Positions 7,678 to 29,882 of a stretch of DNA of 64,000 bases are shown in pieces; position 1 is the first letter of the stretch; each line of letters opens with the position of its first letter. The position numbers and the translations under genes are program-made. The notes beneath the pieces were generated by a model. That model ran no database searches. It was not told where the DNA came from and saw only the letters and a list, made by a program, of their open reading frames with translations. The stretch is from Deltaproteobacteria bacterium tcs-42 (GTDB lineage Bacteria; Desulfobacterota; Desulfuromonadia; Desulfuromonadales; Geopsychrobacteraceae). The stretch is from NCBI GenBank assembly GCA_002049545.1, contig LLYT01000001.1, positions 5,605 to 69,604 of the forward strand, written 5' to 3'.

Positions 7678-7734
7678 AGTATAAGCTCATTACAGACTGA
7701 TTTATGGCTGAAACTTTTGGCTCAGCTATTCAAA

Positions 7735-8148
7735 TTAACCAGGCAGCTCGCTCAAGGTCCAATACAGATCAATTGTTTTGACCACCTCAACAAATTTCAA
7801 ATAATCAACTGGCTTGATCATGTAGCCGGCAACCCCTAAATTGAAGCTGTCCACCTTATCCTGGTCTTCTTTGGATGTTGTCAGGACAACCACCGGGATA
7901 TTTTTAAGATCGTCGTCTTGCTTGGCAATTTCAAGAAATTCAATACCATTCATTTTGGGCATATTGAGATCGAGCAGGATAATCCCCGGTTGTTCGTTGT
8001 CCGAGTTTTGTAGAAAAGCCAGTGCTTCTTCACCATTATTAGTGATGTCCAGTCGATTCGTGACATTGATTTCTTTTAACGCCCGTTTGACTGTCATGGC
8101 ATCGACCTGATCATCCTCCACCAGCAGAATCGGTTTAGTGCTTCTCAT
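7735..8148 (-). CDS. Single-domain response regulator (Rcp1/CheY-like)
   Basis: ILLVEDD, ILLDLNMPKMNG, VVVLTTS, YMIKP. Confidence 0.9.
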   Translation of the reverse strand: MRSTKPILLVEDDQVDAMTVKRALKEINVTNRLDITNNGEEALAFLQNSDNEQPGIILLDLNMPKMNGIEFLEIAKQDDDLKNIPVVVLTTSKEDQDKVDSFNLGVAGYMIKPVDYLKFVEVVKTIDLYWTLSELPG

Positions 8149-10828
8149 CTGTTATCTCCTTATCGGGCAAAGTAAAAAAGAATGTTGTCCCGTGACCCTC
8201 TTCCGCTTCTACCCAGATTTCACCACCATAAATACTCACTATCTTTTTAACTAAGGCCAGCCCAATACCGGTGCTTTCATTTTCGTCACGGGGTGATAGT
8301 GTCTGGAATATTTGAAAAATTTTGTCGTGGTATTTTTTACTGATGCCAGGTCCATTATCTGAAATCGTGAATTGCCAGAAATTTTCCTCTTTTGTGCAGT
8401 TAATTTCTACCACACCTTTATCTTTATCCATATATTTGATGGCATTTTCGATAAGATTCTGAAAGAGCTGTCCAACTCGAAGCGTATCCAGATAAACAAC
8501 CGGTAACTCATTTGCGATAGAGATCTGAATCGTCTCTGGCGGAGCAATACTGGCGACAAGCTCAGCTATAAGTTCGTTCAAGTCGATCCGTTCCATTTTA
8601 CCCCTGATTTGGCCAATGCGTGAGTAACGGAGAATCCCCTCTATCAGACTATCCATCCGTTTAACTCTCTGCAGGATCAAGTCCATCTGCATCCTGCCGT
8701 CTTCATCAAATGCGTTTGCGTAATCTTCTGCAATCCAGTGGGTCAACTGGCTGATGGCGCGCAAAGGGGCTTTCAAATCGTGAGATACAATATAGGCGAA
8801 CTCTTTTAATTCGGTGTTAATGGCCGCATATTTGCTGTTCAGACTCTGAAGTTCGGCTCTGGATTCGTTGACGTCTTCCACGAGGTGGATGAGTGCTTGC
8901 TCTGACTTTTCAAGTTGGCCCGTTTTTGTTTCCAATGTATCGACCTTGTTTTCAAGGTCCTTCGTCTGCTCGTTAATAAGATCTTCAAGGTGCATTTTGT
9001 TCTCGAATAATTCATTTTCTACCTGTTTAAGTTCCGTAATATCGTAAACAACACCTTCATAATGGGTAATTTCACCACTGGGATTTCTACGCATATAGGT
9101 TGTATCGTTCACCCATTTTACCTCACCATTTTGCGTCAAAATCCGATAAGGTTTATGGGTAAATGTATTCTGCGTTCTCTTTTGGCTGTTGCTGACAACT
9201 TCTCCGGTGACCCTTTCTTGATCGTCAGCGTGAATTAATTCCAGATAACGGACCTTTCCCGACCGGAAATCCAGTGAAGAGTACCCAAATAACATCTCAA
9301 CATTGCCGGATACATAATCGACGGGCCAACCATCTTCATTTCGCCACAAGAAAGCGACTGCCGGGCTCCGGTTAATAATTGTATTGGCTTCTAAAAGAGA
9401 CGCCTGAGCACTCTTGCGGTCGGTCGTGTCAGTGATTATCCCAACCATTCCAATCAAGCGGCGATGGTGATCATAAAGCCCGGTTCCTGAAAGTTCCCCC
9501 CAGAAAACACTGCCATCTTTACGGATGTAACGTTTTTCTCGTTGAAACGTCTGTTGATCTACGTTTTCTGCCAACCTTTCAATTATCGGCGTTTGTAACT
9601 GTTCATCCGGGTAGCTCAGATCACGAAAATTCATGGTCAGAAGTTCATCCCGGCTGTAGCCCGTCATCACTTCCCATTGTCGATTGATCTGTTTATAGAA
9701 GCCTTCTGCATCTAAAGTGACCATCCCAGTCAATTTGTTATCATAAATCGCCTTTAATGCCTCCTCGGTTTTCTTTTTTTCCTCCAATGTGGATTGCAGG
9801 GAAGCTCGATAAATCAGGATTGCAAGGAGAACCGTCCCGGTCAAAAGGAAATAAATCAAGAATTGATCAGCCAGTTTTTCAATGTTTGGTTCCGATGTGA
9901 AACCAATCAGATAACCACTTTTTTCATAGCTGATATCCGCTACAGGATGAAAGACAACTGAAAAGGATTTATTGTTATTGGTCACAGAAAGGTTAAACGC
10001 TACTCCTTGCGACATATTTTTTTGCACCCGAGGGTTATTTTTCAGTTGTGCAAATAAATTGTGTATTTCGGTTGGAATTTCCTCCTTCTGCTCCTGATCT
10101 TGAAAAAGTTCCGAAATATATTTGGAGCGGATAAAGTCCGGGTGGATTTCGTTGGCAACATAGTAAAGTTCATTCTCTGCAAACGACTTTTCTAGACCCC
10201 CTTGTTTTTTCTGAAAAAAAACAAACTGCGTCTGCTGAGCAGTTTCAAGCTGTTGAACCTTGTGATAAATCTTACGATAAGGGTTACTGACTTCAACGGA
10301 TCCAATGTGTTCACCATGATAAAGAAGCGGGTAGACATGCCGATACCCATTGATATAACGACCAGGCTCATAACCGTGAACCGGAAGAAGAGAGCTATTT
10401 ACCAGTGCAATTGCAGGACGTATATCGGTGAGATCATCACCAACATTTTGCGGAAGATGAAACCGCAGTAAAGAGCGATTGTCCGGAAAGTGAAAGTGGA
10501 GGATTTTGACAACATTCTTCTTGCTGCGTTGATAGGTTGCAGACAAAGCTCTGTAGAGCAGGCCACGTTGAATAATCTGTTCATCACCTTCGCTGTGAAC
10601 TATTTTATGAACCAGAGCGAGAATTTTTTCCTGATTTAAAACCTCGTGATAAAATGTATCTGCCAATATTTTGTTGGATTGCAAAACGCTGGAGTAAGCA
10701 ATTTTCTGAGTTTCAGTGCGTTGTGTCAGGATATTAACCCTTAAATTTTTATAGGTTGTTTGTAGAACAAAACCGATCACGAGCATTGCCAGGAGATAAA
10801 ATAACAGAAGTTTGAGCCAGTTTTTCAT
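8135..10828 (-). CDS. Membrane sensor histidine kinase with periplasmic Cache-like domain and two PAS domains
   Basis: Two TM segments, PAS/PAC repeats, FAYIVSHDLKAPL H-box, LIENAIKY, DNGPGI, STGIGL. Confidence 0.9.
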   Translation of the reverse strand: MKNWLKLLLFYLLAMLVIGFVLQTTYKNLRVNILTQRTETQKIAYSSVLQSNKILADTFYHEVLNQEKILALVHKIVHSEGDEQIIQRGLLYRALSATYQRSKKNVVKILHFHFPDNRSLLRFHLPQNVGDDLTDIRPAIALVNSSLLPVHGYEPGRYINGYRHVYPLLYHGEHIGSVEVSNPYRKIYHKVQQLETAQQTQFVFFQKKQGGLEKSFAENELYYVANEIHPDFIRSKYISELFQDQEQKEEIPTEIHNLFAQLKNNPRVQKNMSQGVAFNLSVTNNNKSFSVVFHPVADISYEKSGYLIGFTSEPNIEKLADQFLIYFLLTGTVLLAILIYRASLQSTLEEKKKTEEALKAIYDNKLTGMVTLDAEGFYKQINRQWEVMTGYSRDELLTMNFRDLSYPDEQLQTPIIERLAENVDQQTFQREKRYIRKDGSVFWGELSGTGLYDHHRRLIGMVGIITDTTDRKSAQASLLEANTIINRSPAVAFLWRNEDGWPVDYVSGNVEMLFGYSSLDFRSGKVRYLELIHADDQERVTGEVVSNSQKRTQNTFTHKPYRILTQNGEVKWVNDTTYMRRNPSGEITHYEGVVYDITELKQVENELFENKMHLEDLINEQTKDLENKVDTLETKTGQLEKSEQALIHLVEDVNESRAELQSLNSKYAAINTELKEFAYIVSHDLKAPLRAISQLTHWIAEDYANAFDEDGRMQMDLILQRVKRMDSLIEGILRYSRIGQIRGKMERIDLNELIAELVASIAPPETIQISIANELPVVYLDTLRVGQLFQNLIENAIKYMDKDKGVVEINCTKEENFWQFTISDNGPGISKKYHDKIFQIFQTLSPRDENESTGIGLALVKKIVSIYGGEIWVEAEEGHGTTFFFTLPDKEITDEKH

Positions 10829-15412: not shown

Positions 15413-16450
15413 ATGGCCAATATCGTTGTCTGTGCAGATGGAACCTGGAATCGTCCGGAAGAGGATATTGAAAAGGATTTTCCGACAAATGTTTTGAGGC
15501 TGGCTCGGGTTATCAAGCCTTCTGCTGATGGAGTCAAGCAGCATGTCTTTTATGACTGGGGATTGGGCTCGTACCATCACACTTTGACTGCCGGAGCAAC
15601 CGGCCGCGGCATACATAAAAATATTTTGGATGGGTATCGTTATATCGTTCAAAACTATGCCCCCGATGACAACATTTATCTGTTTGGTTTCAGCCGCGGC
15701 GCCTATACCGTAAGGGCACTGTGCGGCCTGATCAACAACTGCGGTATTTTGCATCGCCCCGATGCCAATCTTATTTCCGCCGCCTGGAAAATCTATAAAA
15801 GCCCGGCCTCTAAAAACCGGCCGAAGGGGGAAGCGGCTCGTCTTTTTCGTAAAAACCACTGTCATCCTGCCAGAAAAGTACATTTTATCGGGGTCTGGGA
15901 CACCGTCGGTGCTTTGGGAATCCCTTTCAGTCTGATGGGGCTGTTCGAGAATAACGATGAATTTTATGACACAAAAATGGGTTCAAATGTCGCATTTGCC
16001 CGCCATGCATTGGCAATTGATGAGCAACGGGAAGATTTTACCCCAACAATCTGGACACCCAGACCCAACGTGAACCTCAAACAGGTCTGGTTTGCCGGGA
16101 CCCATTCGGATGTCGGCGGATCCTATCCTCCCGACAAAGAAACAGGAGTCAGGGTTTGCGATGCACCGCTGGGATGGATGCTGGATGAAGCGACAACGGC
16201 AGAATTGAAATTCGAACCCCACATAAAAGAATCACTGACGGACGGTAGCCGCGGGAAACTGCACAAATCGCGCAACCATGTATATCGATTGAAGTCTCCC
16301 TTGCACCGACCATTGATTGTTGATGGCCAGCCTACTATGGTTCATGCCAGCGTTAAGGACCGTTACCTGTCTGATAGTGGTTATCGTCCGCCACAATTGA
16401 AAAAGCTGGTTGAGGAGACCGGGTGGGAGAATTTAAATGTGCAGCTGTGA
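15413..16450 (+). CDS. DUF2235 alpha/beta-hydrolase (Tle1-like)
   Basis: VVCADGTWN, FGFSRGAYTVR (GxSxG), FIGVWDTVGALG, WFAGTHSDVGG. Confidence 0.88.
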   Translation: MANIVVCADGTWNRPEEDIEKDFPTNVLRLARVIKPSADGVKQHVFYDWGLGSYHHTLTAGATGRGIHKNILDGYRYIVQNYAPDDNIYLFGFSRGAYTVRALCGLINNCGILHRPDANLISAAWKIYKSPASKNRPKGEAARLFRKNHCHPARKVHFIGVWDTVGALGIPFSLMGLFENNDEFYDTKMGSNVAFARHALAIDEQREDFTPTIWTPRPNVNLKQVWFAGTHSDVGGSYPPDKETGVRVCDAPLGWMLDEATTAELKFEPHIKESLTDGSRGKLHKSRNHVYRLKSPLHRPLIVDGQPTMVHASVKDRYLSDSGYRPPQLKKLVEETGWENLNVQL

Positions 16451-16602
16451 CCTGAAAAAAATCTGTAGGCTTGAGATCCGTATAGTCCGACAGCCTCCTG
16501 GGCGAGCATGTCCAGCTGATGCCTCGTTATTCAGGAGATACTGCTGATCCGCTTGGCGGTATTCGCCGGGTTATGTCGAATAGCAAGTCAATTTCGTGGG
16601 GT

Positions 16603-17556
16603 ATGATTTATATGCTGTACCAGTTCAATAACAAGTTGTCCCGGTTAACCCGACTGTTACTTATTACTCTCACCATCAATTGCTGTTTTACAGCAATCGC
16701 TAGTGGGCAGATGTACAGGTGGGTCGATGAAAATGGACAGCTGAATTTTTCCAATTCACCGCAGGATGTCCCTGCTGAAGTTCGTAATAAAAACAATGAA
16801 TATAAACCAAGTAGTTCAAGTATTACTATAAGTCCTAAAAACAAGGAATCTGCCGCCAGGCAGTCTGACTTGAGTCGCAACAAATCAACCAATCAAAACT
16901 CTATCACCATCCCATACACCGCCAAAGAGGGCTTAGCCAACCGGGTCATTATCGATGTCACTTTCAATGGTCAAGTCACGGTTCCAATGATGGTTGATAC
17001 CGGTTCCCCCGGTTTAGTTATTTCCAACAGACTGGCAGACCAACTTAATCTGTTTGATGAAGAGGGCGGCAGACTCATGGTGGTTATTTCGGGTATTGGC
17101 GGTCAAAAAATTGCGACCAAGACCATTATTGACAAGTTGACTTTAGGTGGAATAACCGAAAAGTTCATTCCAGCCCATATCGTTTCGGGCATGTCGTCGA
17201 ATCACTATCATGGATTGATCGGTATGGATGTCTTGTCAAGCTACACCATCACGATTGATCCGACACAACATAAACTGGTCGCGAATTTGCTGCCATCAGC
17301 GCAAAATTTGCCAGCAGGACGCAGCAGATCATGGTGGATGGCCAACTTCAGGGAGTTTGGTTTTTATACCAACTACTGGAAACAACAAGGGGACCTGATC
17401 GGCAAAAGTGATTCGCCATATGCACGACTTTCCAGCAGTGAAAAAGAAAAGATAAAAAAATTTATTCAGCAGCAGAAAAATATAGCAGAAGAGTTGTTTG
17501 ACAAGTTGGAACGATATGCTCGCTGGAATAGTGTTCCACGGCACTGGCGGCGGTAG
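16603..17556 (+). CDS. Exported DUF4124 + retropepsin-like aspartyl protease protein (start uncertain)
   Basis: Signal peptide, MYRWVDENGQLNFSNSP (DUF4124-like), MMVDTGSP catalytic DTG, GLIGMDVL. Confidence 0.7.
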   Translation: MIYMLYQFNNKLSRLTRLLLITLTINCCFTAIASGQMYRWVDENGQLNFSNSPQDVPAEVRNKNNEYKPSSSSITISPKNKESAARQSDLSRNKSTNQNSITIPYTAKEGLANRVIIDVTFNGQVTVPMMVDTGSPGLVISNRLADQLNLFDEEGGRLMVVISGIGGQKIATKTIIDKLTLGGITEKFIPAHIVSGMSSNHYHGLIGMDVLSSYTITIDPTQHKLVANLLPSAQNLPAGRSRSWWMANFREFGFYTNYWKQQGDLIGKSDSPYARLSSSEKEKIKKFIQQQKNIAEELFDKLERYARWNSVPRHWRR

Positions 17557-18519: not shown

Positions 18520-21414
18520 ATGACGCCCGCACCCGAAGCGGAAGCGCGTGTAAAGATCGATGAGTTGCTTACGGCAGCCGGATGGGATGTGCAGGACATG
18601 AATGCTGTCAACATCCATGCTGCTCGTGGTGTGGCTATTCGTGAATTCCCTCTGGCTTCTGGCCATGGTTTTGCTGATTACTTGCTTTATGTTGACGGCA
18701 AGGCCTCAGGCATCATCGAAGCGAAAAAGGTCGGCACCACGCTGACCGGGATTGAAATCCAGTCCGATAAATACACCAAAGGTCTTCCCGCAGGCCTCCC
18801 GCGCTGGCACAATCCGCTGCCATTCTCCTATCAGTCAACCGGGGTTGAAAATCGCTTCACCAACGGCCTCGACCCCAATCCCCGCTCACGCAACGTCTTT
18901 GCTTTTCATCGGCCGGAACAGCTTGCCAGCCTCATTGGCTCTGCAATTGTGGATCAGGGACTGCCTGCCGATCTGGGTGGAGCATCGTTTGCCGCTGAAA
19001 CTCTGCCGCAAACCTTCCTTGCCCGCCTGCAGAAGATGCCGCCATTAGTTGAAGAAGGTCTCTGGCCGGCTCAGATCAAAGCGATTACCAACCTCGAAGC
19101 TTCTCTGCGTGCCAATCATCCACGTTCGCTGATTCAGATGGCGACCGGTAGCGGTAAGACGTTCACCGCCATCAACTTCATCTACCGGTTGATCAAGTTT
19201 GCCGGGGCGCGGCGGGTGCTGTTCCTGGTCGATCGGGGCAACCTTGGGCGGCAGACCCTCAAGGAATTTCAACAATACGTTTCTCCCTACAACAACTTCA
19301 AGTTCAGTGAAGAGTACATCGTCCAGCATCTCAACTCGAACGTCCTCGATACCACCGCACGAGTGTCTATCTGCACCATCCAGCGACTCTATTCGATGCT
19401 CAAAGGACGTGACCTGCCCGAAGATCTGGATGAGGAATCGGTCGAGTTTGGGAGTTTGTTCAAGGAACCGGAGCCGATTGAGTACAACCCCGATATTCCT
19501 ATTGGCACTTTTGATGTTATCGTCACCGACGAGTGCCATCGTTCCATTTACAACCTCTGGCGGCAAGTGTTGGAATATTTTGATGCCTCCCTCATCGGTC
19601 TTACCGCCACCCCCAGCAAGCAGACCTTCGGTTTTTTCAATCAGAATCTGGTGATGGAGTACGGCCACGAACACGCCGTCGCCGATGGGGTCAATGTCAA
19701 CTACGATGTCTATCGCATTAAGACCGCCATTACAGAACAGGGCGGAGAAGTTGAGGCTGGTTATTACGTCGACAAGCGTGACCGTGACACCCGCCAGGTG
19801 CGTTGGGAGCAGTTGGATGATGATTTTGCCTACGAGGCCAAGCAGCTTGATCGGGATGTGTTTGCCGTTGACCAGATTCGCACGGTGATTCAGACCTACC
19901 GGAACAAACTGTTCAGCGAAATTTTCCCTGGTCGAACCGAGGTGCCAAAAACGCTGATTTTTGCCAAGGATGATTCCCACGCCGAGGATATCGTCAAAAT
20001 TGTCCGTGAGGAGTTCGGCAAGGGGAACGACTTTGCCCAGAAGATCACCTATCGTACTACTGGCGCCAAGCCGGAAGATCTGATTGCCTCATTTCGTAAT
20101 AGTTATTTCCCCCGCATTGCCGTCACTGTCGATATGATCGCCACCGGCACCGACATCAAGGCGTGTGAGTGTGTTTTCTTCATGCGTACCGTCAAGTCCC
20201 GCGCTTATTTTGAGCAGATGAAGGGTCGCGGGGTGCGGATCATCAATGACAACGACCTGCAAGCGGTGACCCCCGATGCTGTCACCAAAGATCATTTCAT
20301 CATTGTCGATGCCGTTGGTGTTTGTGAGATGGATCAGACCGATTCACGCCCCATGGAGCGCAAGAAGAATGTCGGTTTCGAAAAACTGCTGCAGGCGGTT
20401 GCTTTCGGCAATGCGGAAGCCGAGGTGATATCATCCGTCGCCGCCCGTCTGGCGCGGATGGAGAAGAAACTGACCGCCGAAGAGCATCAGCAGGTGGATA
20501 AGCTGCTCGACGGCAAAAGCCTCAAACAGCTTACCGGTGATCTGGTCGATGCCCTTAATCCGGATAATCATATCAGTGAGGTTTACCTGCGCCGAGCGGA
20601 GCAAGGCAGGCAGGCCGATACAACCGACCCGACACCGGAGGAAATTAAACAATCCGCCATTAAGCTGGTCGGTGAAACGGTTAAACCGCTCTGTAACCCG
20701 AATCTGCGTGAGCTGTTGCTGGAGATCAAAAAGAAGAACGAGCAGATTATCGACACGGTCAGTCCCGATACGCTCATTTTCGCTGGTTTTACAGAGGAGA
20801 AGGCCAAGGGCGTGGTCGAGTCGTTTGAGCAGTTTATCGCTGACAACAAAGATGAGATCACCGCATTGCAGGTACTGTACAGCAAGCCGTACAAGCAGCG
20901 GTTACGGTTTGAGGATGTACGTGAGTTGGCAGAGAAGCTGGTTGCCCAAGTGGAACAGTTGCGGGTTTACCAAACCCATCCGCAAGATTGGGAAAAACGG
21001 GTGCCGAATGAGCTGTGGCAGGCTTACCAGAAGCTGGAAGCAAGCAAAGTACGTGGCGCTGCAGCCAGCCATATTTTGACCGATCTGGTGTCACTGGTCC
21101 GTTTTGCCATGCATCAGGAGAATGAGTTGGTACCGTTTCCTGAGCGGGTCAATGCTAATTTCAAGGCATGGATGGCACAGCAGGAAAGCTCGCCTGCGCC
21201 CGGAGGGCAGGTAGGCGGCAAAAGCTTTACCGATGAGCAGCGCAAGTGGCTGGAGATGATTCGTGACCACATTGCCGCGAATCTGCTGATTGAGACGGAT
21301 GATTTTGATTATGCGCCTTTTGCGCAAGAAGGTGGGATAGGGAAGGTTTGGCAATTGTTTGGGGATGATTTGAGTAAGATACTTGATGAATTGAATGAGG
21401 CATTGGCGGCGTGA
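18520..21414 (+). CDS. hsdR: Type I restriction enzyme R subunit (EcoEI/EcoAI-like)
   Basis: ADYLL...IIEAKK nuclease motif, MATGSGKT Walker A, DECHR, EcoEI-type C-terminus; GGGAG RBS. Confidence 0.92.
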   Translation: MTPAPEAEARVKIDELLTAAGWDVQDMNAVNIHAARGVAIREFPLASGHGFADYLLYVDGKASGIIEAKKVGTTLTGIEIQSDKYTKGLPAGLPRWHNPLPFSYQSTGVENRFTNGLDPNPRSRNVFAFHRPEQLASLIGSAIVDQGLPADLGGASFAAETLPQTFLARLQKMPPLVEEGLWPAQIKAITNLEASLRANHPRSLIQMATGSGKTFTAINFIYRLIKFAGARRVLFLVDRGNLGRQTLKEFQQYVSPYNNFKFSEEYIVQHLNSNVLDTTARVSICTIQRLYSMLKGRDLPEDLDEESVEFGSLFKEPEPIEYNPDIPIGTFDVIVTDECHRSIYNLWRQVLEYFDASLIGLTATPSKQTFGFFNQNLVMEYGHEHAVADGVNVNYDVYRIKTAITEQGGEVEAGYYVDKRDRDTRQVRWEQLDDDFAYEAKQLDRDVFAVDQIRTVIQTYRNKLFSEIFPGRTEVPKTLIFAKDDSHAEDIVKIVREEFGKGNDFAQKITYRTTGAKPEDLIASFRNSYFPRIAVTVDMIATGTDIKACECVFFMRTVKSRAYFEQMKGRGVRIINDNDLQAVTPDAVTKDHFIIVDAVGVCEMDQTDSRPMERKKNVGFEKLLQAVAFGNAEAEVISSVAARLARMEKKLTAEEHQQVDKLLDGKSLKQLTGDLVDALNPDNHISEVYLRRAEQGRQADTTDPTPEEIKQSAIKLVGETVKPLCNPNLRELLLEIKKKNEQIIDTVSPDTLIFAGFTEEKAKGVVESFEQFIADNKDEITALQVLYSKPYKQRLRFEDVRELAEKLVAQVEQLRVYQTHPQDWEKRVPNELWQAYQKLEASKVRGAAASHILTDLVSLVRFAMHQENELVPFPERVNANFKAWMAQQESSPAPGGQVGGKSFTDEQRKWLEMIRDHIAANLLIETDDFDYAPFAQEGGIGKVWQLFGDDLSKILDELNEALAA

Positions 21415-22832
21415 GCAATAAGCAAAAAGAACTCCCTCAGACTTTGCCACGTTGGGAAGTGCCTGACAGTTGGAAATGGGTCAGTCTTGCTGATGTTGGG
21501 CAGGTTATTACAGGTAATACCCCTCCGACTTCTGACAAAAATAATTATGGGAATGATATCCCCTATGTAAAACCCCCGGAACTGGTGGATCGTGGGATTT
21601 GGACAACGCCCAATGGTTTGTCTGAAAAGGGTGCTTCCATTGCAAGAACCCTTCCTGCTGGTGCTGTACTTGTCTCTTGTATTGGCGGCCTTGGGAAAAC
21701 GGGTCTTGCAAAAGTACCAGTCGCATTCAATCAACAAATTAACGCAATCATTTTCAATGAGTGTGTCATTCCTGAATATGGTTTCTACTATGCTCAAACC
21801 TTAAATGAATGGCTCCAGGGGGTTTCCTCTGCGACTACTCTTCCGATAGTAAATAAGGGTAAATTTCAAAGAGCACCAATTCCTATTGCTCCTCCAGAGC
21901 AACAAAAAAGCATCGTTGCGGAAATCGAAAAGCAATTCTCCCGCCTCGACGAAGCCGTCGCCAATCTCAAGCGCGTCAAGGCCAACCTCAAACGCTACAA
22001 AGCCGCCGTCCTCAAAGCCGCCGTCGAAGGCAAGCTCACCGAAGAATGGCGTAAACAAAACCCCGATGTTGAACCAGCCGAGAAACTGCTGGAGCGGATT
22101 CTTGCCGAACGGCGTGAGAAATGGCAGGGGAGAGGGAAGTACAAAGAACCCGCTGCGCCGGATACCACCGATCTGCCGGAATTGCCTGAGGGGTGGGGTT
22201 GGTCCAACTTTGAGCAGCTCTCAGAAGCGATTCCCAATTCGCTTAAGGCTGGCCCATTTGGATCAGCTTTAAAGAAGTCCTTTTATGTTCCAGAAGGTTA
22301 TAAGGTTTATGGTCAGGAGCAAGTCATACGCGAAGACCCATATTATGGTGACTACTTCATTGACGAAGAACGTTATGAAAGCCTTAAATCTTGCGCCATC
22401 AAGCCGGGAGATATGCTTATAAGCTTGGTTGGGACAATTGGTCGTGTACTGATTTTGCCAGAAGATAGCGAGCCGGGAATAATCAATCCTCGCTTAGTAA
22501 AAATAAGTCTAAATACAGATATTGTTGAGCCTTTGTATATCAAGATTTTTCTCCAATCTCCGTTTGTAAAATACCTCTTCGCCCTGGCTTCCCATGGTGG
22601 AACTATGGATATTTTAAATCTTGGAATCTTGAAGGGAATACCTGTCCCTATTCCGCCTCTTCTAGAGCAAAAAGCAATATTGAATGAATTCGCTAGTTTT
22701 TCTTCGGTTGAGGAGAGATTGGAAGATACGGTGGGGGCAAATCAGGCGAGAAGTAATAGGTTGCGTCAGTCAATTTTGAAAAAAGCTTTCTCCGGTCAAC
22801 TGCTGCCAAGTTCTTACGTCGCTGAGAAGTAA
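21411..22832 (+). CDS. hsdS: Type I RM specificity subunit with two TRDs
   Basis: IPIAPPEQQKSIVAEIEKQFSRLD central region; PVPIPPLLEQ...LRQSILKKAFSG C-terminal region; GTG start overlaps hsdR stop. Confidence 0.92.
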   Translation: MSNKQKELPQTLPRWEVPDSWKWVSLADVGQVITGNTPPTSDKNNYGNDIPYVKPPELVDRGIWTTPNGLSEKGASIARTLPAGAVLVSCIGGLGKTGLAKVPVAFNQQINAIIFNECVIPEYGFYYAQTLNEWLQGVSSATTLPIVNKGKFQRAPIPIAPPEQQKSIVAEIEKQFSRLDEAVANLKRVKANLKRYKAAVLKAAVEGKLTEEWRKQNPDVEPAEKLLERILAERREKWQGRGKYKEPAAPDTTDLPELPEGWGWSNFEQLSEAIPNSLKAGPFGSALKKSFYVPEGYKVYGQEQVIREDPYYGDYFIDEERYESLKSCAIKPGDMLISLVGTIGRVLILPEDSEPGIINPRLVKISLNTDIVEPLYIKIFLQSPFVKYLFALASHGGTMDILNLGILKGIPVPIPPLLEQKAILNEFASFSSVEERLEDTVGANQARSNRLRQSILKKAFSGQLLPSSYVAEK

Positions 22833-22843
22833 AGGGGTTTGCT

Positions 22844-23545
22844 ATGAAATCTGAAAAGCTATGTCACATCAATATTTATTGCGACGAAAGCAGGCACACT
22901 TCTAACAGTGAAGATCCCTATATGGTTATTGGCGCTCTCGCCTGTACGCGTGAAAAAAAACAGGAAATTTATCACGTCATAAACCTGCTAAGAAAAAAGT
23001 ACAATGTTTGGAAAGAATTCGGCTGGAAAACTTTGTCGCCAAGTCGGAAGGATTTTTATTGGGAACTGCTTGAGCTTTTCCGTAATTCTGCTGATTTGAG
23101 TTTTCGCTGTCTTGTAGTCGATAGGAATGTTCTGGATCATGAGCAATACAGCGACGGTGATTCAGAGCTTGGTTTTTACAAGCTTTATTACCAGATGTTA
23201 GTGCATTGGTTGCAGCCGCAATGTGCTTATCACCTTTATCTTGATTGGCAGCAGAACAGAGAACAGGGACGTTTTCGGGATTTAGGTCATATTCTAGAGC
23301 GAAAGCTTTCTGGCCGAGCCAAAATTGAATGTCTTGAGCCGGTAAGCTCCAAAGAGCAGCACCTTGTCCAATTGTGTGATCTGTTTATTGGGGCGGTTGG
23401 ATACGCTTGGAATACCAGGGCGGGAAGTGACACCAAGGTTGAGTTTTGCAATGCATTGGCCGCGAACATGGAAATGTCTTCTTTGAAGGTGAGTACCTAC
23501 AAAAGTGAACAGAAATTCAATATCTTTCATTTTATAGGTCGCTGA
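22844..23545 (+). CDS. DUF3800 domain protein (RNase H-like acidic motifs)
   Basis: IYCDES N-terminal motif, YLD mid motif, VQLCDLFIGA C-terminal motif. Confidence 0.8.
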   Translation: MKSEKLCHINIYCDESRHTSNSEDPYMVIGALACTREKKQEIYHVINLLRKKYNVWKEFGWKTLSPSRKDFYWELLELFRNSADLSFRCLVVDRNVLDHEQYSDGDSELGFYKLYYQMLVHWLQPQCAYHLYLDWQQNREQGRFRDLGHILERKLSGRAKIECLEPVSSKEQHLVQLCDLFIGAVGYAWNTRAGSDTKVEFCNALAANMEMSSLKVSTYKSEQKFNIFHFIGR

Positions 23546-23546
23546 A

Positions 23547-24065
23547 ATGTCTGAACATCTCTGGTCTTTACTGAGGCTAAAGGCTGAATCGGGTGATGAA
23601 GTAAAGCAGGCATATTTTAAGAAATATCTTGAAATCTATGTACGCACTTCCGATGGGCAAACGGTCGAAATTTTCGATTGGTTAGGCAATCGAATTTTTT
23701 TCAATCCGCATTTTAATTCTTTTGATCACGCGTTTACTGAGAACAGGAATTACCGTCATAGTCATGGAGTGCATTCAAAAAAGTTATGTAAAAACCGTGC
23801 GAGACGGCTTCTCTGGATAAAGGAAACTCTCAAAGGAGAAGTAGGGACGATTGAGCGTCGGCAAGAGTTTCGAGAAGACAGTCGAGGGCGGATGAAAAAG
23901 AGACGGACTCTGGTTGTGTTGGAAGAGCTATATGTAGTTGTTCTGGAGGAGAGAGAGGGGCGCAATGGGTATGATTTTGTTTCCGCATTCCCTGCTGACG
24001 CAGATTATCTTCGGAAAATACGAAAAAGAAGTACTCTGCTGGAAACAAAAAAGCCCCAGTCTTAA
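23547..24065 (+). CDS. Basic hypothetical protein, possibly BECR/RelE-fold RNase
   Basis: 172 aa, Arg/Lys-rich; FDHAF, RARRLLWIK, YVVVLE, FVSAFP resemble PBECR-type nucleases from memory; starts 1 nt after the DUF3800 stop. Confidence 0.5.
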   Translation: MSEHLWSLLRLKAESGDEVKQAYFKKYLEIYVRTSDGQTVEIFDWLGNRIFFNPHFNSFDHAFTENRNYRHSHGVHSKKLCKNRARRLLWIKETLKGEVGTIERRQEFREDSRGRMKKRRTLVVLEELYVVVLEEREGRNGYDFVSAFPADADYLRKIRKRSTLLETKKPQS

Positions 24066-24129
24066 CGGCGACTGAGGCGCTGCCACGGTCCTGAGCCTTA
24101 AGCAAAGGGCCAACAGCCTTACGGCTTAA
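24043..24129 (-). ncRNA. Predicted ~85-nt small RNA convergent on the 23547-24065 gene
   Basis: Own sigma70-like promoter upstream, two hairpins, intrinsic terminator (fully paired with a U-G wobble only on the minus strand, followed by TTTTTTGTTT). Confidence 0.6.
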
Positions 24130-24134
24130 TTTAA

Positions 24135-24163
24135 ATATTACCCGACCTCGGCTTTCTGTGCAA
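24135..24163 (-). promoter_or_regulatory. sigma70-type promoter TTGCAC-N17-TAATAT for the predicted sRNA
   Basis: Plus strand ATATTA 24135-24140, 17-bp spacer, GTGCAA 24158-24163. Confidence 0.6.
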
Positions 24164-24209: not shown

Positions 24210-24314
24210 ATGATTCCTGCAGCAACCATGTTAATACTCTGGAATTATTGTAATGCCCTCCCTGTCTGCCTCATTGTTTTCAGCGCGGGCAATCGCGATT
24301 TTTCGTGGAAGTAG
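24210..24314 (+). pseudogene. Degenerate hsdM 5' remnant #1 with a 33-nt palindromic insert
   Basis: MIPAATMLILWNYCNAL-[11 codons]-RD aligns to MTPAAIVSKLWNYCNVLRD of intact hsdM. Confidence 0.7.
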
Positions 24315-24420
24315 AATACGACACCTGTAGCTATTGTTAAGTAAGTATTGGATTTTGTTCGGGACACAATATTTGATTGCCCGGATCAATAAACGCTTAC
24401 GGCGGATAAAGGTATGATAA

Positions 24421-25422
24421 ATGAACCCTCAAACTGAACAGAATGAGATTGTTCTCTTTCAGACGGACGATGGTCAGACGCAGCTTAAAGTTCAGCTTGA
24501 CCATGATACCGTCTGGCTGAGTCTCTATCAAATGGCAGAGCTTTTTCAGCGGGACAAATCAGTCGTCTCCAGGCACGTGAACGCTATTTTTAAAAGTGGC
24601 GAATTGGTGCGAGAGACAACTGTTGCAAAAAATGCAACAGTTCAGATTGAAGGCGGGCGTGAGGTCCAAAGGAGCATCGAATACTTTAATCTTGATGTTA
24701 TTATCTCCGTCGGCTATCGCGTCAATTCCAAACTCGGAATTCTGTTCCGCCAATGGGCTACCCGCGTTTTACGTGACCACCTGGTCAAAGGCTACAGCAT
24801 CAATGAACAGCGTTTGCGTGAAGAGACTGCCAAGTTGCGGGAAATGCAACAGACTGTCGATTTGCTTGCACGCACCCTGACCACTCAGGAATTGATCACT
24901 GCCACCGGTAAAGATGTGTTGCGTGTCATCAGTGACTATGCCTACGCACTGGCCACGTTGGATCGTTATGATCACGGCAGCTTGATTATTGATAAAACCA
25001 CCGCCAAAGTCTTGCATGTCATCGACTACGAGGAAGGCATTGCTCTGGTCAGGTCGATGAAAGGGGAGTTTGACGGTCTGTTTGGCATCGAAAAAGATCA
25101 GGGGTTCAAGAGTGCTCTTGGCACCATCTACCAGACATTTGATGGTAAAGAACTCTATCCCAGTGTCGAGGAAAAAGCCGCCAATCTGCTCTATTTTGTG
25201 GTGAAAAATCACGCATTCAGTGATGGCAACAAGCGTATAGCTGCGGCAATATTTATCTATTTTCTCGCTGCCAACGGTATTTTGTATCGTCCCGATGGCT
25301 CCAAGCGCCTTGCCGACAACGCTTTAGTGGCATTGACCCTGTTGATTGCCGAAAGTCGGCCTGAAGAGAAAGAGACGATTGTCAAAGTCATCATCAACCT
25401 TATCAACCGGAGTAACGACTAA
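24421..25422 (+). CDS. RhuM-like DNA-binding domain fused to Doc-type Fic domain
   Basis: TVWLSLYQMAELF, YFNLDVIISVGYRVNS (RhuM-like); HAFSDGNKRIA (Doc-type motif). Confidence 0.85.
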   Translation: MNPQTEQNEIVLFQTDDGQTQLKVQLDHDTVWLSLYQMAELFQRDKSVVSRHVNAIFKSGELVRETTVAKNATVQIEGGREVQRSIEYFNLDVIISVGYRVNSKLGILFRQWATRVLRDHLVKGYSINEQRLREETAKLREMQQTVDLLARTLTTQELITATGKDVLRVISDYAYALATLDRYDHGSLIIDKTTAKVLHVIDYEEGIALVRSMKGEFDGLFGIEKDQGFKSALGTIYQTFDGKELYPSVEEKAANLLYFVVKNHAFSDGNKRIAAAIFIYFLAANGILYRPDGSKRLADNALVALTLLIAESRPEEKETIVKVIINLINRSND

Positions 25423-25427
25423 ATATT

Positions 25428-25661
25428 ATGACCTCAGCTGCAATTGTATCCAAACTTTGGAATTTCTGTAACGTTCTTCGCGACGATGGCATGAGCTACC
25501 TGTCTGCGTGCGGTCACGCACAGGCAGGCGGCGACTACGTCCCTGCCTGCATTTCATGCGCAGGCAAGGAACAGTTCACCTATCTGCTTTTTCTCAAAAT
25601 GGCAGACGAGCGAACCAAACCGCCCTACAACCAGCTAAGCAATATCCCGAGTCATTGTTGA
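25428..25661 (+). pseudogene. hsdM 5' remnant #2 with two in-frame palindromic inserts (30 and 27 nt)
   Basis: Collinear with the first ~56 codons of intact hsdM apart from inserts LSACGHAQAG and PACISCAGK; homology stops just before the fic gene. Confidence 0.9.
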
Positions 25662-25662
25662 T

Positions 25663-26304
25663 ATGATGTCCCCTTCAGTTCGCTACGACACATCCGGCTT
25701 GCCGGAAGACCAATATGAACCCGGTTCAGATAGATCTGTTCTGAAAAATCTGCGTGGAATTACCTCTTCGGAAGAGATGCAGATTGTTGAGACAGAGGAA
25801 TTGTGGCGAACACAAGAATATCTATTGGGAGAGATTGAACAAGATCAGAAATTCACTGTTAATGATATCTATGAAATGCATCGAATCTGGCTCGAAACGG
25901 TTTATTCGTGGGCCGGAAAAGATCGTCAGGTCAATATCAGCAAAGGCGGGTTCGATTTCGCCATGGCTCGGGTGATTCCGAACATGATGGCGGAGTTTGA
26001 GCGGAAACAGTTGGCGGTACATACCCCGTGCCAATGTACCGATATAAATGAAATCGCTCAGGCTCTGGCGCAAGTGCATGTAGAGCTGATGCTGATACAC
26101 CCCTTTCGTGAGGGGAACGGTAGACTCGGTCGTTTATTTGCCACACTGATGGCATTGCAGGCAGGTTTGCCGCTACTTGATTTCAGTGATTGGTCAGGAT
26201 TAAAGAGAGAAGAATACTTTGCTGCGGTTCGTGCAGGCATGGATATGAAATATGATCCGATGAGGCAACTATTTCTTGAGGTGATAGAAGGTTCAGGCAG
26301 ATAA
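25663..26304 (+). CDS. Fic-domain AMP-transferase (class I FicT-like toxin)
   Basis: Canonical HPFREGNGRLGR motif; YEPGS...VLKNLRGI N-terminus. Confidence 0.9.
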   Translation: MMSPSVRYDTSGLPEDQYEPGSDRSVLKNLRGITSSEEMQIVETEELWRTQEYLLGEIEQDQKFTVNDIYEMHRIWLETVYSWAGKDRQVNISKGGFDFAMARVIPNMMAEFERKQLAVHTPCQCTDINEIAQALAQVHVELMLIHPFREGNGRLGRLFATLMALQAGLPLLDFSDWSGLKREEYFAAVRAGMDMKYDPMRQLFLEVIEGSGR

Positions 26305-26317
26305 CGGAAGAGGCCGG

Positions 26318-26536
26318 TTAAGATTTCTTTGAGGTGTTGTAGTTCGTCCCGGAGGTAGATTCGTGGACGCAGTTTGTCGAGCTGCTGTTCTTGGATACGA
26401 ACTGTCCCGTAACAGCATCACGCTTGACGCTAATCCCTTCAATTGCGGAAGACGATTCTATGTTGCGAGTCATCGATTTTTCACGAATTGAGCGGTTTTG
26501 AAGATGTCGATTGGTTGTTAATAGTGACTTTTTCAT
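26318..26536 (-). CDS. Small putative Fic antitoxin (FicA-like)
   Basis: 72 aa with SSAIEG matching the (S/T)xxxE(G/N) inhibitory motif; ends 13 nt from the fic stop. Confidence 0.6.
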   Translation of the reverse strand: MKKSLLTTNRHLQNRSIREKSMTRNIESSSAIEGISVKRDAVTGQFVSKNSSSTNCVHESTSGTNYNTSKKS

Positions 26537-26600
26537 GTCGCTAATTATACAAGAAGCAACAATTTTTATCAGTAAAATAATAAACAGGACAGGAACTTAA

Positions 26601-28136
26601 ATGACACCTGCAGCAATCGTATCAAAACTCTGGAACTACTGTAACGTCCTCCGCGACGACGGCATGAGCTACGGCGACTATGTCGAACAGCTCACCTATC
26701 TGCTTTTTCTCAAAATGGCAGACGAACGGACCAAGCCGCCGTACAATCAACCGAGCAATATCCCGGCTGAATATTCATGGGCAACACTGGCGAAGAAGGA
26801 CGGTGACGAACTGTTCGACCACTACCGCCATACCCTGGAAAACCTCGGCAACGAAAAAGGTCTGCTCGGTCTGATCTTTAACAAGTCGCAGAACAAATTC
26901 CAAGACCCTGCCAAACTGCGTCGCCTGATTGTCGATTTGATCGACAGTGAAAACTGGTCGGTGATGAGCGCCGATGTCAAAGGTGATGCCTACGAGGGGC
27001 TGCTGGAGAAAAATGCTCAGGACACCAAGAGCGGTGCCGGGCAGTATTTTACCCCGCGTCCGCTGATTCAGGCGATAGTTGATGTGGTTGCTCCCAAACC
27101 GGGGGAGACCATCAGTGACCCGGCCTGCGGAACCGGTGGTTTCTTGCTTGCGGCGCACGACAGCCTGGTCGACAACCATCCGCACATGACCAAAGACGAG
27201 CGGAAAAAGCTTAAGGAGGGGACCTTCAAGGGTTGGGAGTTGGTGCAGTCGACAGCACGGCTCTGTGCCATGAACCTGATGCTGCATGGTATCGGTGCCG
27301 GTAATGGCAGTACGAATCTTCCTTTAGTCGTCTCTGATTCTCTAGCGGCTGATCCGGGCGACCGTTTCGACATCATCCTCACCAATCCCCCCTTCGGAAA
27401 GAAGAGCAGTACTACCATTGTTGGTGAAGACGGCAAGGTTGCCAAAGAGAAGGAAACCGTTGAGCGTGACGACTTCTGGGCAACAACCTCAAACAAGCAG
27501 CTCAACTTCATCCAGCACGTCAAAACCCTTCTCAAACAGCATGGCCGTGCCGCCGTAGTTGTGCCGGACAACGTGCTGTTCGAAGGCGGAGCAGGGGAGA
27601 CCATCCGCCGCAAGCTGCTGCACGAATGCGATGTTCACACCATCCTGCGTCTGCCGACCGGACTCTTCTACGCCCAAGGGGTCAAAGCGAACGTTATCTT
27701 TTTCGACCGCAAACCAGCCAGTGAAACGCCCTGGACAAAAAAGCTATGGATTTACGATCTGCGCACCAATACGCACTTCACCCTGAAAACCAATCCGCTC
27801 AAACGCAGTGATCTGGATGATTTTGTCGCTTGCTATTCTGCGGGGAACTTGAAAGCTCGCAAACCGACTTGGACGGAAAATATGAAGGACGACTTGCCTG
27901 CGCAAAACGACAGTTTTGCAGGCAGGTGGCGCAGTTACGACTACGAAGACTTGATCGCCCGCGACAAAGCCAGCCTCGATATCTTCTGGCTCAAGGATGA
28001 TTCGCTGGAGGATTCAGACAACCTTCCAGAGCCGGGTGTACTGGCTGCAGAGATTGTTGAAGATCTGCAGGCGGCTTTGGAGCAGTTTAGGGAGATTGCT
28101 GAGGATTTGGGCGAAGACGAGTTTGTTGCCGAATAA
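26601..28136 (+). CDS. hsdM: Type I RM N6-adenine methyltransferase
   Basis: GQYFTPR, DPACGTGGFL (motif I), NPPF (motif IV); AGGA RBS. Confidence 0.95.
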   Translation: MTPAAIVSKLWNYCNVLRDDGMSYGDYVEQLTYLLFLKMADERTKPPYNQPSNIPAEYSWATLAKKDGDELFDHYRHTLENLGNEKGLLGLIFNKSQNKFQDPAKLRRLIVDLIDSENWSVMSADVKGDAYEGLLEKNAQDTKSGAGQYFTPRPLIQAIVDVVAPKPGETISDPACGTGGFLLAAHDSLVDNHPHMTKDERKKLKEGTFKGWELVQSTARLCAMNLMLHGIGAGNGSTNLPLVVSDSLAADPGDRFDIILTNPPFGKKSSTTIVGEDGKVAKEKETVERDDFWATTSNKQLNFIQHVKTLLKQHGRAAVVVPDNVLFEGGAGETIRRKLLHECDVHTILRLPTGLFYAQGVKANVIFFDRKPASETPWTKKLWIYDLRTNTHFTLKTNPLKRSDLDDFVACYSAGNLKARKPTWTENMKDDLPAQNDSFAGRWRSYDYEDLIARDKASLDIFWLKDDSLEDSDNLPEPGVLAAEIVEDLQAALEQFREIAEDLGEDEFVAE

Positions 28137-28158: not shown

Positions 28159-29061
28159 ATGCAATCCATAATTTCTATTGCGACGCCTGCAGCTCTTTAC
28201 CTACTAGGTGTTTTCCTCTTTACCTTTCCGCTTGTCTGGCTACAGAAACGCAAGCAGAAAGGTAAAAGATCACCTTTAAGTGGTCATTTGTTGCGTAGTC
28301 CTGGCACTTCATTGCAGAGCCGGATCGAAGAATTGAGTTTGGATATCATGGCATATATTGCTATTTTTCCTGCCTTCCCGCTGCTGATTTATTCGTTTTA
28401 TCTCCCATTGATTCATGCTCAAAAGACCACGACCTATAGTGTTTTGATCATCATTGGTATCGTGATTGTAGTGTTACTTTGGATTGGCATTAAGGTCTAT
28501 CGATTGATGACGGAAAGAAATAACTGTCGCTTGGGTCTCGATGCAGAAATGGCGGTAGGTCAAGAACTTAACCAGCTTATGTTTAATGGGTTTCGAGTTT
28601 ATCATGACTTTCCGGCGGAAAATTTCAACATTGATCATGTCGCGGTTGGTCCGACAGGCGTCTATGCCGTTGAGACGAAAGGGAGGACAAAGGCGATTAG
28701 AAAGGCCGGAAAGGTTGAGGCGACTGTCGTTTATGATGGAAAGACACTGCAATTTCCAAGTTGGTATGAAACCGAACCGTTACTGCAGGCACAACGTCAA
28801 GCCGACTGGCTCAGAAAATGGCTAACCAGTGCAGTTGGCGAGCCGGTGTATGTGCAAGCAGTTTTGGCTCTCCCAGGATGGTATGTTGTACGTAAAGCTG
28901 ATCGACCAATAAAACTGATCAGTGGTAAAGAAGCCTATTCCCTGGCAAAACCAAGCGGCATTACCCTTCTTGGTAACGACATGATCCAACGGATTTCCCA
29001 TCAGGTCGAACAGCGTTGTCGGGACGTTGAACCGGTTGCTTACCGAAAAGAAAAGAAATAA
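28159..29061 (+). CDS. Membrane-anchored NERD (nuclease-related) domain protein
   Basis: N-terminal TM helices, GLDAEMAV, YHD, NIDHVAVGPTGVYAVETK. Confidence 0.8.
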   Translation: MQSIISIATPAALYLLGVFLFTFPLVWLQKRKQKGKRSPLSGHLLRSPGTSLQSRIEELSLDIMAYIAIFPAFPLLIYSFYLPLIHAQKTTTYSVLIIIGIVIVVLLWIGIKVYRLMTERNNCRLGLDAEMAVGQELNQLMFNGFRVYHDFPAENFNIDHVAVGPTGVYAVETKGRTKAIRKAGKVEATVVYDGKTLQFPSWYETEPLLQAQRQADWLRKWLTSAVGEPVYVQAVLALPGWYVVRKADRPIKLISGKEAYSLAKPSGITLLGNDMIQRISHQVEQRCRDVEPVAYRKEKK

Positions 29062-29854: not shown

Positions 29855-29882
29855 ACGTCGCATAATGTATATTATGTAAACT
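29855..29882 (+). other. dif: Chromosomal dif site (XerC/XerD recombination site)
   Basis: ACGTCGCATAA-TGTATA-TTATGTAAACT vs E. coli GGTGCGCATAA-TGTATA-TTATGTTAAAT; intergenic. Confidence 0.88.

Follow-up and report, generated by a model that had tools for sequence, protein, structure and literature searches.

Truncated hsdM starts between the cargo genes of a type I restriction-modification operon as probable scars of stepwise cassette stacking

The operon and its cargo

In a 64,000-nt stretch of Deltaproteobacteria bacterium tcs-42 (contig LLYT01000001.1), hereafter the window, whose positions are used throughout, a type I restriction-modification (RM) operon carries three sets of candidate defence genes between hsdS and hsdM, and the first two sets are each followed by a truncated hsdM 5' end, which we call a stub. 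The domains of HsdR, HsdS and HsdM identify the locus as a type I RM operon, and its activity is predicted from them. On the plus strand the order is hsdR, hsdS, a DUF3800 gene with a partner gene for 172 amino acids (aa), stub1, a RhuM-Doc fusion, stub2, a Fic gene with a small convergent open reading frame (ORF), an intact hsdM and a NERD-domain gene; the cargo between hsdS and hsdM measures about 3.8 kb. Features lie on the plus strand unless stated otherwise.

The restriction subunit gene hsdR (18520-21414) encodes 964 aa with the Pfam domains ResIII (2e-36), Helicase_C, HSDR_N and EcoEI_R_C (4e-41), and its product is 60-86% identical to HsdR of related loci. The start of the specificity subunit gene hsdS (21411-22832; 473 aa) overlaps the hsdR stop. 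HsdS has two Methylase_S stretches (Pfam), in keeping with two target-recognition domains, and hsdS is conserved relative to its relatives only in a central region (21880-22200; 85-94% identical), while the remainder differs. The intact hsdM (26601-28136) is an open frame of 511 aa with HsdM_N (1e-13) and N6_Mtase (3e-69) domains.

The first cargo set (22844-24065) consists of the DUF3800 gene (22844-23545; Pfam) and the gene for its 172-aa partner, p172 (23547-24065), which match the PADLOC families PDC-M04A (E=7e-75) and PDC-M04B (E=6e-73), and it is collinear with the corresponding region of Desulfuromusa kysingii (L002) at 83% nt identity. It is followed by a conserved block of about 85 nt (block 24044-24128 within the feature 24043-24163, minus strand), which is 80-87% identical in L007 (in two copies), L041 and L063 and contains a terminator-like hairpin on the minus strand (24078-24053). 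The second set is a single gene for a RhuM-Fic/Doc fusion (24421-25422; 333 aa; Pfam Virulence_RhuM and Fic; PADLOC PDC-S23, E=2e-136). The third comprises a gene for a Fic-domain protein (25663-26304; 213 aa; Pfam Fic; PADLOC PDC-S04, E=1e-74; NCBIfam VbhT/Fic-like below the cut-off) and, on the minus strand, a 72-aa ORF (26318-26536) convergent with Fic and divergent from hsdM. All three sets therefore match candidates that PADLOC defines from embedding (PDC-M04, PDC-S23 and PDC-S04), which makes them candidate defence genes by family match.

By its position the 72-aa ORF is a putative antitoxin or regulator; Pfam, NCBIfam and PADLOC contain no family that it matches. Its homologues always adjoin Fic and share 97% aa identity in the same-genus genome G007 and 43-65% in L011, L051, G051, G032 and G021. 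Relative to G007 it is better conserved than Fic itself (97% versus 90.6% aa identity). It points away from hsdM, and a promoter-like site lies in the interval (26572-26544, minus strand), so that it could be a regulator instead of, or besides, an antitoxin.

The initial annotation of this DNA had placed three successive hsdM starts, at 24210 (decayed), 25428 (about 56 codons) and 26601 (intact), each behind a different cargo. Both statements hold: blastn, nhmmer and Pfam recover the three starts, and Pfam and PADLOC distinguish the DUF3800 gene and its 172-aa partner, RhuM-Fic/Doc, and Fic with the small ORF as the cargo ahead of them.

The two stubs

Stub2 (25428-25661) is an open frame of 77 aa made of hsdM nt 1-165 and two palindromic inserts. 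It consists, from left to right, of hsdM nt 1-72 (83% identical), a 30-nt palindrome (25500-25529), 12 nt of hsdM, a 27-nt palindrome (25542-25568), hsdM nt 85-165 (89% identical) and 13 unrelated bases, and both palindromes are in frame. Blastn against the whole genome finds it with E=7e-19 and 1e-8, and nhmmer with a profile of the family's 5' end with E=1.7e-39. It begins 5 nt past the RhuM-Doc stop, and its TGA lies one base ahead of the Fic ATG. Of its 24 differences from the resident hsdM, 3, 3 and 18 fall at the first, second and third codon positions; 16 of the 56 codons differ synonymously and 5 non-synonymously (binomial p=3.6e-5). Because the differences are mostly at third positions, stub2 and the resident hsdM must have diverged while both coded for a working protein. 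Stub2 is no closer to the resident hsdM than to the alleles of other genomes.

Stub1 (24210-24261) is shorter and more decayed: it comprises hsdM nt 1-52 (MIPAATMLILWNYCNAL), begins at the ATG and is 79% identical to the hsdM 5' end. It was found by blastn genome-wide (E=1.4e-5) and by nhmmer with the family 5' profile (E=0.0015 in the window; 0.06 in the genome, where it is the third-best match in 2.55 Mb). The end of p172, the conserved block and the spacer are collinear with L002 and G025, and this independently confirms stub1: in D. kysingii and G025, where the DUF3800 cassette is the only one, the ATG of an intact hsdM occupies that very spot. Its differences from the resident hsdM (1, 5 and 5 by codon position) are plain decay. 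The many synonymous differences between the copies reported in the initial annotation stand for stub2. Directly after stub1 lies CTGTCTGC (24262-24275), the start of a palindromic motif described below, and just past that a putative terminator-like hairpin with a T run (24284-24307), found by consensus scan only. A fourth mini-stub at 24318-24365 (18 nt, 83%) went undetected by nhmmer with the family profile and was dropped.

Native junctions in other genomes

Each of the three cargo sets is found elsewhere directly linked to an intact hsdM. DUF3800, p172, the conserved block and an intact hsdM form the native arrangement in L002 and G025. RhuM-Doc stands directly ahead of an intact hsdM, with a gap of 6-9 nt and 72-78% aa identity, in G015, G053, G059, G037 and L013; the spacing and sequence from RhuM-Doc to stub2 are collinear with these junctions, and a stub in G046 has the identical junction. 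Fic, the small ORF and an intact hsdM follow one another in G007, G051, L011 and L051. These linkages are shared by genomes at 50-80% identity and are therefore far older than the array in the window. It follows from the native junctions that the array in the window is composed of three ready-made cargo-hsdM units, of which the last alone has a whole hsdM. They support the proposal in the initial annotation that the cargo came from related hsd loci.

In L100 (G032:C37), RhuM-Doc, an hsdM start of about 40 nt, Fic and the small ORF occur in the order of the window at 7378-9297, with 65-70% nt identity. This block adjoins large helicase-like genes and lies outside this hsdM family; from its sequence it looks like a whole stub-bearing block that moved to another context. 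A search of plasmid records with the HsdM N-terminus yielded none with several copies, and all its matches were distant (<60% identity).

The closest comparison is offered by G007, where the order is hsdR (78% nt identity), a different hsdS, PifA, stub2, Fic, the small ORF and hsdM; its stub2 contains both palindromes and has the junction seen in the window. Identity to the window is about 94% from Fic through the ORF to nt 100 of hsdM, and about 87% in the remaining hsdM. The open 77-aa frame of stub2 is kept in both species (25428-25665 in the window; 15752-15990 in G007, which is L093). In the G007 stub, none of the first 28 hsdM codons has an amino-acid change, compared with 13 of the last 28 (Fisher p=4e-5); these 13 substitutions brought neither a stop nor a frameshift, both inserts are in frame, and the stub ends where that of the window does. 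Over nt 1-72 the alignment gives 8 differences from the stub of the window, mostly synonymous. The simplest reading of these sequences is that the part of the G007 stub before the first palindrome was overwritten by an incoming segment of hsdS, cargo and hsdM start, and the difference between the two halves of the stub suggests that new cargo can enter upstream of an existing stub by recombination inside it. None of the other loci encodes a homologue of the G007 PifA, and the flanks of the hsd locus are not common to the window and G007.

It had been supposed that decay would place the oldest cassette on the left. This could not be established: G007 has PifA upstream of the stub2 that it shares with the window, and among loci with several stubs the more decayed ones stand on the left in the window, L006, L024 and L051, decay is equal in L014, and the trend is reversed in L069.

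Stubs across the hsdM family

We collected 80 loci with HsdM proteins 72-90% identical in aa sequence which, with the window, make 81 loci of one hsdM family from Desulfuromonadales, Nitrospirota, Beta- and Gammaproteobacteria and others, many of them metagenome bins. In loci whose fetched flank reaches hsdR and hsdS, hsdM comes last, after hsdR, hsdS and an interval of 0.1 to about 7 kb. A DNA profile of hsdM nt 1-240 found 33 extra copies in 23 of the 81 loci, all 33 co-oriented with the intact gene and 32 of them upstream of it. The corresponding numbers for other parts of the gene are 7 for nt 300-540, none for nt 600-840 and one for the last 240 nt. In an unbiased sample of the taxonomic order of the window, at least 8 of 41 genomes with this hsdM have adjacent stubs. 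The stubs end anywhere between hsdM nt 34 and 462 and, as the truncation points vary, the cut does not appear to be site-specific. About half of them start within 10 nt of the stop of the preceding plus-strand ORF, often with an ATGA overlap.

The genes between stubs elsewhere are diverse and include known systems. L024 has patatin with SMODS/AGS-C, a cyclic oligonucleotide-based antiphage signalling system (CBASS), then a helix-turn-helix (HTH) nucleotidyltransferase and others, then AbiEi-AbiEii; L014 has DarT with a macro domain, then DUF5615, then DUF6883; and L006 has ApeA-HEPN, then DUF4145, DUF6933 and AbiEi-nucleotidyltransferase, then three unknown genes.

The picture is mirrored at the other end of the operon, where 8 loci have between them nine hsdR 3' stubs, each of which retains the hsdR 3' end, with its native junction to hsdS, after cargo (often RhuM or RhuM-Doc) inserted past hsdR: two in L010 (5538-5696 and 7242-7355), one each in L014 (3429-3561), L022 (5869-5956), L032 (5419-5574) and L078 (1982-2065), and further ones in L008, L015 and L024. 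Extra hsdR fragments number one from the 5' end and none from the middle. Stub scars are a general property of this operon family, across several phyla. As in arrays that grow by displacement, the remnants are one-sided, co-oriented and derived from one gene end, each retained module is elsewhere the one that adjoins an intact hsdM, and the third-position bias indicates that remnant and intact copy come from different functional alleles.

That bias extends beyond the window. Stubs of other loci differ from their own hsdM at first, second and third positions by 0/0/9 (L007), 1/1/11 (L013), 1/1/14 (L009), 0/0/6 (L015) and 0/0/4 (L004), and a codon-position test on 22 stubs from other loci agreed; the pooled p is 2.6e-11, against 0.46 estimated for a stub that arises by duplication and then decays neutrally. 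These sequence comparisons support the view that the stubs are remnants of functional hsdM alleles and not simple local duplicates that decayed in place, as the initial annotation had held. The phylogeny of the three 5' ends that it had proposed was built on 165 nt; 13 of its 24 forks are unresolved, and it does not decide the origin of stub2. The nearest-allele ranking of the stubs had a mixed outcome. Of the two observations that had been named as telling against stacking, grouping of stubs with the resident hsdM is mostly seen in this tree, whereas invariant cargo is not: cargo varies between strains.

Palindromic mini-elements

Several stubs end at, or contain, a mini-element of the form CTGCCTGC, 4-20 nt, GCAGGCAG, which folds as a hairpin. 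In five independent stubs, which come from Desulfuromonadales and Nitrospirota (stub1 of the window, where it is partial, L014, L051 twice, and L069), it follows immediately on hsdM nt 52; it also lies at the end of another L069 stub and at nt 72 and 84 in stub2. Mini-elements also occur in frame within intact hsdM and hsdR genes. Copies were located at 24262-24275, 25500-25529, 25542-25568 and 27894-27925 in the window, and at 8955-8987 in L014, 1974-2008 and 2991-3025 in L051, 866-890 in L069, 9882-9909 in L050 and 3461-3494 in L097 (G001). The first insert of stub2 is 94-97% identical to the copies in Sulfuricaulis (L050) and the same-genus G001. By a rough count the mini-element is about 30-fold enriched in or beside stubs compared with 1.5 Mb of loci. 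A search of the window's genome for the inserts of stub2, allowing up to 6 substitutions, found no other copies, which rules them out as a repeat dispersed through it.

Intact hsdM genes (L014, L015 and L093, which is G007) near codon 48, and stubs of L024 (4649-4983) and L035 (7843-8019), contain short in-frame inserts that recur at a small number of positions. Both hsdM copies in L007 share the 8-aa insert PSTSLRTG, which resembles a repetitive extragenic palindromic (REP) sequence. The inserts in the HsdM N-terminus look like translated palindromic or REP-type repeats (LPASGAGK, VPASGAHK), and from these sequences the N-terminal domain appears to tolerate short in-frame inserts.

Discussion

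We believe that the stubs are probably recombination scars, left when cargo-hsdM units from related loci displaced the old hsdM and spared its 5' end. Cassettes sit directly ahead of hsdM, and at this junction stop and start usually lie close together or overlap. Related DNA entering with a different cargo-hsdM unit would find in the conserved hsdM a place for a homologous crossover, while its other end would be joined illegitimately within the 5' part of the resident hsdM. The resident hsdM would thereby be displaced, its first 20-460 nt would remain attached to the old cargo, and the incoming cargo and hsdM start would take over. Repetition could stack cassettes into an array such as that of the window: DUF3800 module, stub1, RhuM-Doc, stub2, Fic and small ORF, hsdM. 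A stub, once present, would be a further patch of hsdM homology at which later crossovers might add or swap hsdS and cargo upstream, the cassette behind the stub being kept. Candidate routes are homology-facilitated illegitimate recombination and its topological equivalent, in which a circularised fragment enters by a single crossover; the molecular route and the order of events in the window are what we infer from the scars. We favour displacement because the one-sidedness, the variable cuts in the first third of the gene, the allelic differences, the native junctions on both sides and the lack of a recombinase fit together. As to the last point, ORFs tested from 12 to 31 kb hold no integrase, transposase or recombinase domain and the pattern recurs widely, which supports the suggestion in the initial annotation that such arrays accumulate without an integrase.

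Several points weigh against displacement. The compared genomes include no donor and recipient close enough to show the locus before and after an event. The clustering of stub ends at nt 52 beside the mini-element is not predicted by the simple model. Most stubs fall beside the resident hsdM of their own locus on the 165-nt tree, and those of L004, L007, L013 and L009 are 92-97% identical to it, with the next best allele at 80-92%. Such grouping is expected if donors are close relatives or if gene conversion occurs, and it also fits local duplication with allelic exchange; the third-position bias, likewise, may reflect a local duplication after which the intact copy took up a new allele. Finally, in L007 (Nitrospirota) a repeat around the cargo (6608-7010 and 9861-10264) contains a second copy of the conserved block of about 85 nt together with hsdM nt 1-208, and this arrangement resembles insertion with long target duplication more than displacement.

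A bolder reading, which we hold to be doubtful, makes the hsdM 5' end and the stubs a generic attachment site for host recombination: a cassette between a stub and the intact hsdM start would loop out as a circle, or travel in linear form, and re-enter any member of this operon family by a single RecA-dependent crossover, with the mini-elements at nt 52, 72 and 84 as possible break-prone hot spots. If true, it would make type I operons an integrase-free platform for cassette capture common to several phyla.

Also unlikely is that cargo was inserted in the 5' region of the resident hsdM with a long duplication of the target on both sides, the copies later diverging by allelic exchange and gene conversion. 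This process is documented for RM units, which insert without an integrase between direct repeats of tens to hundreds of bp (46-423 bp; Furuta, Abe and Kobayashi, 2010; PMC2853133). The tree and the high identities given above speak for it, as do the repeats in L007 and L004, which reach 139 and 45 nt upstream of the ATG. Against it, the differences are almost purely at third positions even in the most similar pairs, which decay of a dead copy in place does not predict; the cargo-hsdM junctions are conserved across deeply diverged genomes, which argues that the units pre-existed and were imported together; and stub2 shows no special closeness to the resident gene. The stub repeats are single-copy in cargo-poor relatives; their differences are those of alleles, and the one on the right has a native linkage to the insert. 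Nobusato is reported to have described such insertion of RM units in 2000.

Whatever their origin, the stubs might have been kept as useful, as translated leaders that couple the translation of successive cassettes or as N-terminal HsdM peptides, a suggestion that is compatible with any model of origin and to which we give little credence. In its favour, the stub2 frame spans the interval between RhuM-Doc and Fic almost completely and could be a translational bridge, and the G007 copy has stayed open despite its substitutions. An open frame over 84 decayed nt could, however, be chance, stub1 runs into unrelated sequence and a terminator-like hairpin, and stops or frameshifts occur in many stubs elsewhere (L006, L018, L044 and L069).

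We consider it very improbable that two or three complete hsd systems of the same family once stood in tandem and suffered deletions from inside one hsdM to the next cargo. Neighbouring type I systems are common in defence islands, as in Xylella, and variable deletion end points would be expected, as observed. Yet a second hsdM middle occurs in 0 of 81 loci and a second 3' end in one, so that intermediates are absent, no hsdR or hsdS remnants lie between the stubs of the window, and the model gives no reason for the confinement of every deletion start to the first ~460 nt of hsdM. Scarcely credible to the same degree is a site-specific system in which the mini-elements serve as attC-like or REP-like hairpin sites for an enzyme encoded elsewhere and the stubs are by-products: the precise position after nt 52 in two phyla, the positions at nt 72 and 84 in stub2, the hairpin fold and the enrichment would suit it, but most stub ends do not coincide with an element, the junction of stub2 with Fic lies 84 nt past the last one, elements also occur inside intact genes and have no regular place at cassette ends, the genome of the window has no further copies, and the ORFs tested from 12 to 31 kb include no recombinase gene.

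Displacement links this operon to better known loci. In Rhs, contact-dependent inhibition (CDI) and type VI secretion system (T6SS) effector-immunity loci, arrays of orphan modules arise by displacement, for which homology-facilitated illegitimate recombination was proposed (Kirchberger, 2017; PMC5361080). That source cites experiments with marker DNA in which the same process was demonstrated during natural transformation of Acinetobacter, Streptococcus and Pseudomonas (de Vries and Wackernagel, 2002; Prudhomme, 2002; Meier and Wackernagel, 2003). One homologous anchor with an illegitimate joint nearby is the geometry that would produce a 5' stub, although here it is read from scars alone. 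Jackson in 2009, Poole in 2011 and Koskiniemi in 2014 are said to have treated displacement arrays of orphan modules as well. The hsd arrays share with them a conserved gene part as homologous anchor, retention of the displaced module with a gene remnant, repetition, and independence of an integrase. They differ in polarity: there the toxin gene has its conserved core at the 5' end, and the 3' tips that are displaced accumulate downstream, whereas here the hsdM 5' end and the hsdR 3' end are left and displaced hsdM starts pile up upstream. They differ also in content, since the toxin loci keep variants of one toxin-immunity pair and hsd loci retain unrelated defence or toxin-antitoxin cassettes.

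L007, L004 and L013 resemble RM long target duplication in geometry; in that process, however, the insert is an RM unit and the repeat is host DNA, while here the repeat is the end of an RM gene, the insert consists of other defence genes and the repeats differ synonymously. As in integrons, promoterless or operon-embedded cassettes form an ordered stack beside a fixed gene, new ones pushing older ones along, but no IntI-type recombinase was found in ORFs from 12 to 31 kb, the cassette borders have no attI or attC, and junction positions vary.

Embedding of defence genes in type I operons is itself already known. PrrC in EcoprrI is one such gene. Payne et al., 2024 (bioRxiv 10.1101/2024.01.29.577857) catalogued the defence genes that lie inside type I RM, BREX, DISARM and Hma systems and tested their defence, and the embedding site of DarTG2 in an RM island of enteropathogenic E. 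coli (EPEC) was called a potential recombination hotspot (PMC12255303). The cargo of the window corresponds to PADLOC candidates of this catalogue; the preprint makes no mention of recombination, truncated genes or the origin of embedding, and unlike the catalogue the stubs bear physically on how embedding arises. Our literature search gave no account that treats hsdM or hsdR stubs as traces of stacked cassettes, or that describes displacement in RM operons. What appears to be new is the stub scars and a probable displacement array in a restriction operon that gathers unrelated defence systems.

Embedding in RM, BREX and similar operons is used to discover immune systems, and the route by which the genes enter has been left open. 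If displacement is correct, stubs would be a readable record of cargo-hsdM units moving between related operons by recombination at conserved gene ends, with old cassettes kept. It would provide a testable mechanism for the growth of defence islands without mobile-element enzymes and tie restriction operons to the displacement logic of polymorphic toxin loci. Orphan gene starts and ends may furthermore serve as a simple sequence signature for delimiting cassettes and finding new ones.

Flanking features

The NERD-domain gene (28159-29061; Pfam NERD) follows the intact hsdM, as do homologues in L006, L023 and L032. A strong dif-like site (CGCATAATGTATATTATGTAAA; 29859-29880) lies 0.8 kb past it, and the hsd island abuts a probable replication terminus. 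The window has no second dif-like site, so the island is not bracketed by Xer sites. Upstream of the operon, the region 15413-17556 encodes a protein with a Tle1-like phospholipase domain and one with a retropepsin-like aspartyl protease domain and DUF4124.

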